Shown one piece after another: positions 42,101-45,100 of a stretch of DNA of 64,000 bases. Origin of the DNA: Escherichia coli (GTDB lineage Bacteria > Pseudomonadota > Gammaproteobacteria > Enterobacterales > Enterobacteriaceae); assembly GCF_030013595.1 (NCBI RefSeq), contig NZ_CP122769.1. One strand, 5' to 3'. A program made the position numbers. Numbering within the stretch: the stretch's first letter is position 1; every line of letters starts with the position of its first letter.

Positions 42101-45100
42101 TTTCCAGAAGAAGTCAGCGAAATTCAGAAACGGCCATCACAATGGTGCTGCGCTGACGCTGGCGTTCTGCCTTGCGCTGCCTGCGGCGATAGATCTATTT
42201 TGCGCTGACGTAAGGGCAGTCCTCACGGGTATACCAGCAGCAGCCGCAAGGTTCGGGCCGGGGTTTTCCGGCAAGTCCAAATGGTTTCATCAAGTCACCT
42301 TTTTAATATTTTTAATGGCAAGATACTTCCCTAACACATTGTTTTATCGCATATAACGCTGTTGCATAAACAGATACAGATAACCCTCAGGAGAAAACAT
42401 GCAAAGGTTATCAGTGATAACCGCATCCAGATACCGAGTGTCAGTCTGTAAACGTTTTATCACCAGAAAATGTGCTGCCGCAGCCTTAATGCCAGAACTA
42501 CCGTTTACAACATTATGTATACCCGCTTCGAATAACGAACGAGCATGAATTACCTTTTCCCGGGCCGCTTCGATCTCCGCATTAATAACGCATTGCCGCG
42601 CCTGGATGACTGCCTCTCCGGTTAAATCGCGGAAATTCATTAGAGATGTGATCATGATTAACTCTCCAGATTATGTGGAATCATTATAACAACTGGCATC
42701 CCGCCACAAATAACCTGAGAAAAATTCTTTGAAATATTCCTATATATAAGGAATTACAGTCGGAAAAGAAACGATGAAATAGCGCCGACCGCTTAAAATC
42801 GATAAATTAAAATGGACGGCACTGGAATGAAAAACTGAAAGTAGTAAGACCGTAATTATCCTTCACGGATGTAAGCTTTATAAGAGGAGTACTGGCAAAG
42901 CTTTGCCAAGTACTTCGGCGGTTGTGTCTACGATTTTACGGATGTCATCGATCTGCGAAGGCTTATTCAACACCACCGTAAAAAGCTCTCCTTCGTTATC
43001 AGCCTGCTCGCAGTTTCCGTATCGGCTCCCGTCGTACAGCTGCACAATACGTGACATAGAAGACTTTGTTTGTTTCATGGCTTTGCACCTGCTTTTAGGC
43101 AGTTTGGTTACTGGTTATCAGAAGCTGGTTTCATGCGCTTCCGGCTGGGACACGAACTGGTATTTGACGCCGCCAGGCACACCTACTGCTTCGGCAATAG
43201 AGTCGCAAAGCCGCGATAAATCATTTAGTGTCATCGGATATTCAATATCTACAGAATATAAAGCACCTGCATTTTCAGCATCTTCGATGTTTTTATACTG
43301 GGCACTAAATATAGCAATGGTCTGAATTTCGTGGTTATGCATGAACCGGTCCTTATTAAATTATAAAAGCCACCCGAGAGTGGCCTGAGTTGAAACTTAA
43401 ATCTGTGAAGTATTTTTGAGAGATTTTTTGCGATCCAGATGCCGGGCAACAATGGTTCCGATAACAAGTAGCATGATGACCGCACTGAAGAAGGTGCTGT
43501 CAGGGACGCCCTGGAAAAAATCACTGAAACTGTAAACAATAAAAATCAATGCGCAAAAATAGAAAACGATACGAACATAAGGGGTAAAAAACATTTTCAT
43601 CGGTTGCCTTCCATTCAGGGAGAATTCTCAGTAATTACATCACACCTGAAGAGAAACTATTTTCGTATAAATGAGCATTTTCGACATATCAGAGGGGGGG
43701 TTTACTCATAAATGAGGTAGTAAGGGTCACACTTGAGGTGAAAGTTACTTTCCTGGCTGCGAACGAACTATCTCAAATGTTAGAGGTGTGCGTTCGCCTT
43801 GAGAGCCTCATGCCCTGAGGAGCTCAACTTGAGCCGATAGTATAAACCTGGCTCCAGATGGCTTGCTGGCTGGCATAACTCCACGAGGCCGAGCCGGAAC
43901 AGGACCGGAGAGCTCCTGCACGTCACATCATCAGGATTCCCCATAAACGTACGCCGTTCTCTGGCCCGTCTGAAATTGCCAGAGATATCATAGACCGTGC
44001 CGGATGCCATCCGTCGTAACACGTAAATCTGTGCCATTGTAAGCTTCTGGGCGGAACTGCTTAAACCTGACATACCTTCCCCTCCTTATATAAAACAATC
44101 CGCCAGCAGCTCGACTGGCGGACAATGTTTGACTGGCAACAGCAAGGACATACTATTTAGTGACAAGTTTGATCTTGGTTTCACTCATTCGAAGTCGAAA
44201 CTCCTGAAAACCCTGCTCTACCGCTAACTCCAGCCACTCAACGGGAATGGTATAGCTACAATCAGACCCACCCAAAGCGGCATCACAAGCGTAATCCCAG
44301 TCCTCATCCAGTTTTGGATTCATCCCCTGGGCGTAAGCCACAGTATCGCGGGATGCGGGAGAGCCCTCAAGCTCAGCATTAGTGATCAGGTATACACCAT
44401 GACTGTGCGCGAGAAGCACTTTTGGCACCAGATGTGTGCTGGCAATTTTTGAGGATGAGGGAAAGAAAACCCTACCAGCTTTACGCGCCTCTTCTTCAGT
44501 CTGTCCCTCAGCGTTAAGGAGGGCTCCCCCCGGATAGCATGCCGGGTCATAGATCTGATCTGCGGTGACCGAAAACGTTTTTGCGGTGCGAATTTCTTCG
44601 ATCAGTTTATTAATATCCGCCATTTCAAATACGAGAGTGGTCACAGGCTTACTCTCCCTCTTCAGTGGACAACATCAGATACTTTGTTGCCAGCAGAAGC
44701 TCTCCCACATCCTTGAGGGACAATTCAGCTTTGCCTTCTACGGCAAGCTGCAAGCGCTGTCGAATTGCATGAACAGAATCTGAAGATAAAGATGCCATTT
44801 TGCGCAAAACGGCATTAGCCTTTTCTACAGCAGGATACAGAATTTCTGAGTTGGTATTATCTTCGTCATTATCAAAGATAATTTCAGAATCCATATTGAT
44901 GTTATCTTCAAGCCAGCTTGAAAGCACTTCAAGTAATGACATCACCTTTTCAATTTGCATATCGCCTCCTCTGTTAATGTGAAACAAATATAACAAAGTG
45001 GCTTACCCGGCTAATAACCTGAGCAGAAAGTTTTCGCACTTTGTTTGAAAACAACTTTTCTGCTCAGGTTAATGTTAAAGTCGCTGTGTAAAAGATAAAG

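Follow-up and report, generated by a model that had tools for sequence, protein, structure and literature searches.

A 31-codon open reading frame (ORF) on the minus strand of Escherichia coli contig NZ_CP122769.1 (assembly GCF_030013595.1), an IncHI2 plasmid, was analysed within a 64,000-nucleotide stretch of that contig, which is referred to as the window. The frame is not a new gene. It is the 5′ part of a conserved gene, 56–58 codons long, of IncHI resistance plasmids that is ended early by a CAG-to-TAG change at codon 32, and it represents a nonsense allele of an already annotated, uncharacterised small gene. We infer that the window copy is most likely a loss-of-function allele, a young pseudogene that was spread by hitch-hiking.

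An amber codon in a conserved IncHI small gene

The reading frame, its start signals and the interrupted part of the ancestral gene occupy the following positions.

42195..42290, minus strand: 31-codon ORF plus TAG stop, equal to codons 1–31 of the family gene, with the MKPFG motif and a C-x-CC-x6-C cluster
42295..42301, minus strand: Shine-Dalgarno (SD)-like AAGGTGA, read directly, 4 nucleotides (nt) upstream of the ATG
42195..42197, minus strand: codon 32, the amber codon TAG; ancestral CAG (Gln) changed by a single C-to-T transition at 42197
42114..42194, minus strand: untranslated rest of the ancestral gene, codons 33–58 (IYRRRQRKAERQRQRSTIVMAVSEFR) with the original TGA at 42116-42114; arginine-rich helix region

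The sequence-only reading had described this locus as an unannotated, cysteine-rich ORF of 31 codons, opened by an ATG at 42290 with AAGGTGA in front of it, and these elements were recovered when the minus strand was read directly. The ATG (42290-42288) is separated from AAGGTGA by the 4-nt spacer CTTG, and the product of 31 amino acids (aa), MKPFGLAGKPRPEPCGCCWYTREDCPYVSAK, is followed by the TAG at 42197-42195. The peptide contains four cysteines, at residues 15, 17, 18 and 25, and not the five that had been counted. A GC-rich patch around the frame had been pointed out correctly, with a GC content of 0.58–0.61 over positions 42150-42299 versus 0.30–0.41 in the flanks. This patch extends to ∼42114, well beyond the TAG, and fits the full 58-codon ancestral frame, not the 31-codon one. 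It covers the whole ancestral ORF because the second half of the gene is rich in CGC and CAG codons, which encode an Arg/Gln-rich tail. The description of the frame as unannotated also holds: among complete RefSeq E. coli genomes, plasmids with the TAG allele carry no feature at the site, not even a pseudogene, and in related plasmids with the CAG allele a hypothetical protein is annotated.

A stretch of 800 bases around the ORF matches ∼1,000 large conjugative IncHI2 plasmids with 95–100% identity. Their hosts are E. coli, Salmonella, Enterobacter and others, and the plasmids carry a MOBH relaxase and MPF-F. In R478-like IncHI2 plasmids and in pAPEC-O1-R the same start codon opens a 58-codon ORF, which is annotated as hypothetical protein WP_000802040.1 (58 aa; MKPFGLAGKPRPEPCGCCWYTREDCPYVSAKQIYRRRQRKAERQRQRSTIVMAVSEFR). 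Counterparts are found in IncHI1B plasmids (WP_164997028.1, 56 aa, and WP_162859439.1, 58 aa), and all of these genes lie at the same locus as the window ORF, between genes for hypothetical proteins of 103 and 93 aa. Of 391 bases aligned between the window and pAPEC-O1-R, only 2 differ, and the TAG is created by one of these differences, a C-to-T change. The SD sequence, the start and codons 1–31 in the window are identical to those of the WP_000802040.1 gene, the DNA of the 26 codons downstream of the stop (codons 33–58) is base-for-base the same as in the intact allele, and the ORF contains no difference other than the amber base. In a DNA alignment codon 32 of the outgroups is a sense codon, ACG or CCG; therefore, the intact state is ancestral and the amber codon is derived. 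In the window only 31 residues would be translated. The proposal of a small gene was thus right in recognizing a real conserved frame but not in its extent, since the natural gene has 56–58 codons and the 31-codon form is owed to the CAG-to-TAG change.

The ancestral ORF is a true protein-coding gene under purifying selection. The ratio of nonsynonymous to synonymous substitution rates (dN/dS) is 0.11–0.13 between IncHI2 and IncHI1B and 0.06 within IncHI1B, with synonymous sites near saturation, and the differences are distributed over codon positions 1/2/3 as 10/10/26 and 9/11/29. In a distant-mode blastn comparison with IncHI1-type plasmids, only bases 37–193 of a 374-nt intergenic query align. 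This segment runs from just upstream of the SD sequence to codon 47 of the ancestral ORF, and the flanking DNA cannot be aligned between IncHI2 and IncHI1B. It is the agreement between dN/dS, the third-position bias and the ORF-limited blastn alignment that identifies the ancestral ORF as a real gene. In the IncHI2/IncHI1B alignment AAAGGTGAC and the ATG are invariant, residues 1–20 are invariant among IncHI members, and the amino-acid sequence is kept even in relatives in which the DNA is saturated, for example L005, L006 and L007.

Taken alone, the 31-codon ORF is not significant. The window contains 340 ATG-initiated ORFs of at least 31 codons (block shuffles, ∼318), and such ORFs with an SD-like 4-mer upstream are common, at 88 in the window versus ∼44 in block shuffles. 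These counts favour the alternative, already allowed for in the sequence-only reading, of a chance ORF with no biological meaning. It is refuted by conservation in relatives, which makes the ORF real: frame, start and SD sequence are kept over ∼1,260 plasmids and in more distant contigs, and they are shared by IncHI2, IncHI1B and more distant plasmids, under purifying selection (dN/dS 0.06–0.13). Conservation of the frame in homologous regions, which the same reading had named as its check, was therefore found.

The truncated copy and the intact protein

Allele frequencies were obtained from a tblastn search with the intact protein against 72,556 plasmids. The identical protein (100%) was encoded in 472 records, including R478 (NC_005211.1), and 525 records matched with 98.3% identity, the band expected from one mismatch in 58, such as the stop. 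A further 259 records were of the IncHI1 type, with 70–72% identity. An exact 61-mer centred on the TAG is present in 519 PLSDB records, and the TAG allele is carried by about half of the sequenced IncHI2 plasmids. One of the TAG-allele records is NZ_KU341381.1, probably pHNSHP45-2, an mcr-1 plasmid of the ST3-IncHI2 group.

The amber allele is not the only broken copy. Plasmid pF138-1 (NZ_OY754383.1; L021, position ∼1280) has lost 52 nt, with the two copies of the 9-nt direct repeat CGTCAGCGC as the exact endpoints. The resulting frameshift reduces the product to 33 aa, a second and independent truncation in IncHI2. Both repeat copies are present in the window.

42150..42158, minus strand: distal copy of the 9-nt direct repeat CGTCAGCGC (GCGCTGACG on the plus strand), encoding R-Q-R; endpoint of the pF138-1 deletion
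42202..42210, minus strand: proximal copy of the 9-nt repeat, in the other frame, (Y)VSA; other endpoint of the pF138-1 deletion; not conserved in IncHI1B

As the sequence-only reading had noticed, the motif is repeated: the plus strand of the whole window contains exactly two copies of GCGCTGACG, at 42150 and 42202. It was rejected as a functional motif, since translation passes through the two copies in different frames and IncHI1B has kept only one of them. The repeat is incidental: beyond serving as a substrate for deletion, it shows no apparent function. Among database variants, the sequence of P0002, P0006 and P0007 leaves the family after codon 31–46, and in these three and P0008 part of the sequence does not follow the family, which is consistent with frameshifted, interrupted or rearranged copies. 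An overlapping 47-aa ORF with a TTG start (42280..42137) was dismissed as an out-of-frame by-product; a similar out-of-frame tail is found only in the altered variant P0006. From the amber allele, the pF138-1 deletion and the altered variants it follows that the gene is repeatedly lost on short time scales despite long-term purifying selection.

AlphaFold2 models of the intact protein consist of a loop (residues 1–25) and one long helix (residues 26–57). The mean predicted local distance difference test score (pLDDT) was 75 with a 6-sequence alignment; with an 18-sequence alignment pLDDT was 48–57 for residues 1–30 and 76–91 for helix 26–57. In these models no part other than the helix is folded with confidence. 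Among 18 diverse family members the invariant or near-invariant columns are M1, K2, P3, G5, G16, R36, K40, R43 and Q44 (M1, K2 and G5 invariant, P3 near-invariant), and four of these nine columns fall downstream of the amber codon. The N-terminal family motif MKP[FY]G...GK is present in the window product as MKPFGLAGK, and CGCCWY at residues 15–20, with its G-C-C-aromatic core, is identical to that of the IncHI2 and IncHI1B members. The C-terminal basic helix RRxQRKxERQ, which family members encode within one uninterrupted ORF of 50–70 codons, lies behind the TAG in the window (DNA 42194-42117). Residues 34–47 of the intact allele fall within the predicted helix, and the 31-aa product ends before this arginine-rich motif. 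The window copy is judged most likely to have lost its function because the missing helix is the only confidently folded part and is conserved across the wider family.

Ribosomes would probably still start at the intact SD sequence and ATG of the TAG allele, and a 31-residue peptide would be released that keeps the MKPFG/Cys-cluster N-terminus and lacks the arginine-rich C-terminal helix (YRRRQRKAERQRQR...). The allele would then have spread by hitch-hiking with an epidemic IncHI2 lineage. The intact protein would be co-expressed with the upstream 103-aa gene, both as members of the accessory small-gene array that adjoins the Tra1 transfer region. With a net charge of ∼+7 in residues 32–58, the intact protein is best interpreted, from its sequence and predicted helix, as a putative small basic nucleic-acid-binding protein that would probably bind RNA. 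A regulatory role, which had been suggested for the peptide, is possible for the intact protein with its arginine-rich helix; the window product has no such helix. The idea of metal binding found little support. No Pfam or NCBIfam model of a curated zinc-binding domain matched at a meaningful E-value, the N-terminal 30 residues are predicted with low confidence, and the cysteines are not family-wide: members of other subfamilies (P0010, P0013, P0015, P0016 and P0019) have Asn or Val in place of Cys25, and L019 and L020 contain no Cys.

Several observations weigh against a non-functional window copy or against the function proposed for the intact protein. The TAG allele retains the SD sequence, the start codon and the 20 invariant residues of the N-terminus. 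The allele has reached about half of the IncHI2 plasmids with no further decay, which fits hitch-hiking but would also fit a tolerated or favoured truncation. The pF138-1 deletion leaves a very similar N-terminal product of 33 aa, which could hint that the N-terminal peptide is retained. Nucleic-acid binding is deduced solely from composition (the charge of residues 32–58) and the predicted helix. In addition, a 261-nt region folds as RNA somewhat better than shuffles (z = −3.0).

The intact start signals with the invariant N-terminus and the pF138-1 product also speak for a working 31-residue peptide, as does the presence of the allele in ∼520 plasmids of a very successful lineage. In such a peptide the N-terminus with its cysteines would be a self-contained module for metal binding or interaction, and function would be changed, not abolished. 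We regard such a functional peptide as a possibility that has to be kept in mind, but an unlikely one. Intact family members all have 50–70 aa and no natural member ends near codon 31, the family-wide basic helix is lost, and the N-terminus is the part with low predicted confidence, with cysteines that vary across the family and match no zinc-finger model. Furthermore, the ORF otherwise equals the intact allele, so the lineage is too recent for selection on the truncated frame to be visible.

Read-through of the TAG, by natural amber suppression or low-level near-cognate decoding, would supply full-length protein at a reduced and perhaps regulated level. CAG-to-TAG is the classic change corrected by a Gln-inserting amber suppressor, which would restore the wild type exactly; the sequence downstream of the stop is perfectly preserved, and a tRNA with the anticodon CUA accompanies distant family members in some phages. 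However, wild enterobacterial hosts are generally not known to have amber suppressors, and no read-through signal or structure was identified. The downstream preservation is expected anyway in a young clonal lineage, and the locus is left unannotated by RefSeq pipelines. We therefore consider read-through very improbable.

The RNA fold score, together with the GC-rich island in an AT-rich spacer, the nearby hok/sok module and the one-directional array of small genes near the transfer region, could also indicate that the conserved element is a structured RNA or a single-stranded DNA element, for example a leading-region single-stranded DNA promoter or a small RNA, with an incidental ORF. The concentration of substitutions at third codon positions, a dN/dS of ∼0.1 and the conservation of amino acids where DNA is saturated (L005, L006 and L007) argue against this, as does the fact that the hairpins downstream of the gene are not conserved in IncHI1B. 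In the 38–47 kilobase (kb) part of the window, Rfam models gave only sok and one weak chance match (the MIR7696 microRNA, far below the gathering score). An element of this kind has a very small probability. A Hok-like type I toxin was considered as well and rejected: the peptide is polar and basic and contains no hydrophobic stretch, and the only sok match (40510-40668) lies 1.5 kb away.

An amber-truncated copy that has most likely lost its function has practical consequences. The site is better marked as a pseudogene or disrupted small ORF than proposed as a new 31-aa gene, and about half of the sequenced IncHI2 plasmids have the nonsense allele and no annotation, whereas the remaining half have the gene annotated. 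As a simple single-base marker, the TAG separates two IncHI2 sublineages. For a study of the function of the family, the window copy is the wrong allele.

Genomic surroundings

The ORF lies in a 374-base-pair (bp) spacer between two genes for hypothetical proteins, both on the minus strand, and a hairpin follows the ancestral stop codon.

42344..42655, minus strand: upstream gene for a 103-aa hypothetical protein, the syntenic partner; homologues lie directly upstream in IncHI1B and L005 (47–61% identity); match to phrog_8549, E-value 2.9e-9
41688..41969, minus strand: downstream gene for a 93-aa hypothetical protein, 78% identical to its IncHI1B counterpart
42079..42112, minus strand: 10-bp perfect hairpin (TTCTTCTGGA / TCCAGAAGAA, 14-nt loop) followed by AATTTTAAAAT; inverted repeat I3, 1 nt after the ancestral stop, present in the minimum-free-energy fold

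The position of the small gene directly downstream of the same-strand, phrog_8549-like 103-aa gene is shared by the window, IncHI2, IncHI1B and L005, and the two genes may form a two-gene module. In L011 a 109-aa gene is located directly upstream of the small gene, and its likeness to the 103-aa gene is one of size and position. The 93-aa gene carries the PLSDB/RGI label 'Brucella suis mprF, defensin resistance' with 100% identity. This label is very probably a database false positive, as it is implausible for a 93-aa plasmid protein. The hairpin at 42079-42112 is possibly a weak terminator; it was not called by the terminator scan and is not conserved in IncHI1B. A second hairpin of the spacer after the ancestral stop (41992-42023, minus strand) is likewise not conserved there. 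The promoter and terminator scan returned nothing beyond the shuffle expectation.

The spacer belongs to a long one-directional array of small minus-strand genes (window positions 26000-63000) that points toward Tra1; the relaxase of the window is at 16830-19982. In the collinear reference plasmid pSTM6-275 the array is ∼35 kb long and runs toward the Tra1 region with mobI, MobH and TraD. It contains DUF3085, DUF957, DUF6012, an HNH endonuclease, a PAPS-reductase-family protein, an orphan DNA methyltransferase and a RelE/ParE toxin. By analogy, this gene content resembles a plasmid leading or establishment region. A paper on leading regions (PMC11541004) holds no orientation data specific to IncHI, so the array can be called leading-region-like by analogy only.

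A hok/sok type I toxin-antitoxin module is present 1.5 kb from the ORF (40354-40668, minus strand; Rfam sok, 81 bits, 40510-40668). Two long minus-strand ORFs adjoin it, one of 390 aa (39100-40272) and one of 266 aa (38303-39103), which by eye only resemble istA and istB of an insertion sequence (IS) of the IS21 family. In pSTM6-275 IS150 and IS421 are found next to hok instead, and the spot beside hok looks like an IS insertion hot spot.

Relatives in plasmids and phages and comparison with known systems

The intact protein had no meaningful match in Pfam, NCBIfam or PADLOC. For its family, searches of 5.8 billion and of 1.8 billion proteins gave only ∼17 clusters and 11 representatives, respectively, none of which has a name. 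In a literature search WP_000802040 was not mentioned, and nothing specific on the small ORF was found in papers on IncHI2 or R478. Judged from the sequences, the family-wide core consists of the MKP[YF]G motif and the arginine-rich helix, and the Cys cluster is specific to a subfamily. Foldseek comparison of the model with PDB and BFVD gave nothing, a 58-aa loop-plus-helix being too simple for fold search, and in a profile search of PDB the only hits, with E > 0.5, were basic tails of ribosomal proteins and hnRNP Q that resembled the query in composition.

Outside IncHI, one plasmid member is found in Citrobacter freundii, in an array with two antirestriction genes (PF03230), DndB, DUF1380 and DUF4942, and another in an IncHI-like array with DUF6012, DUF3085 and hok. 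Profile searches of PHROGs with the IncHI proteins gave weak but consistent matches to families of unknown function only (phrog_10765, phrog_6713 and phrog_14783; E-values 4e-5 to 7e-4). The IncHI2 protein itself found nothing in phages by tblastn, but the distant members P0015 and P0019 found small hypothetical genes in Mooglevirus, Stephanstirmvirinae, Lahexavirus and Slopekvirus phages.

Distant phage relatives are located in or beside tRNA clusters, several of them inside (L018, 2001-2213; L017, 2001-2180; L019, 2001-2159; L013, 8001-8183; L008, 1368-1565). In Citrobacter phage Mordin the family gene lies within an array of >20 tRNAs and overlaps a tRNA-Arg, and in L013 it is surrounded by 23 tRNAs. 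A tRNA with anticodon CUA, of the amber-suppressor type and labelled 'tRNA-Pyl' by ARAGORN, is present ∼15–400 nt upstream of the phage family gene (L008, 1279-1353; L013, 7727-7801; L017, 1527-1601). ORFs neighbouring the L008 gene hold in-frame stop codons, and in P0015 the gene caller read Gln where the related phage L017 has TAG. These observations are hints of amber recoding in the phages with the CUA tRNA. In Klebsiella phage phi1_175008 the 5′ end of the annotated coding sequence L017 2011-2340 seems to have been set too far upstream. The C-terminal half of this coding sequence corresponds to a separate 62-aa Cys-rich gene of L008, and the first half shares its DNA with the family ORF (2001-2180) but is read in another frame.

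Plasmid and phage members may together form an undescribed superfamily of proteins of 50–70 aa with MKP[YF]G and an arginine-rich helix, encoded in plasmid arrays (IncHI1, IncHI2 and the antirestriction-rich Citrobacter plasmid) and in tRNA clusters of lytic phages. Speculatively, its members could be early RNA- or tRNA-binding factors, for example in counter-defence or in modulating translation, and the C-terminal truncations that recur in IncHI2, by the amber allele and by the pF138-1 deletion, could then reflect selection to shed or alter the protein, not drift; we hold this as an outside chance. The nonsense allele itself is an ordinary finding, and the wider family is a modest lead. Being uncharacterised, under purifying selection and common to plasmids and phages, the intact family is a reasonable, low-priority candidate for small-protein functional screens.

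When the intact protein is compared with known systems, its likeness to small zinc-knuckle and zinc-ribbon proteins consists of the four cysteines within 11 residues of the IncHI subfamily. The spacing of these cysteines differs, as it is C-x-CC-x6-C and not that of paired CxxC motifs. A possible resemblance to the arginine-rich-motif RNA-binding peptides (lambda N, HIV Tat and Rev), a lead only, would lie in the short arginine/glutamine-rich helix (RRRQRKAERQRQR), and in HIV Tat, as in the intact protein, a Pro- and Cys-containing segment precedes the helix. The intact protein has no sequence or fold match to any solved structure, and no cognate RNA hairpin was identified, although no search aimed at one was made. 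The PHROG families with members in Citrobacter phage Mordin, Klebsiella phage phi1_175008, Aeromonas phage 4_4572 and Slopekvirus share with the IncHI protein the N-terminal MKP[YF]G, the length of 50–70 aa and a C-terminal basic helix, (R/K)(R/K)xxRKxARQ. However, they are only 20–34% identical to the intact IncHI2 protein in the family alignment, and some phage members contain no cysteines. Their genes reside in or beside tRNA clusters, whereas the IncHI genes reside in arrays of small plasmid genes.

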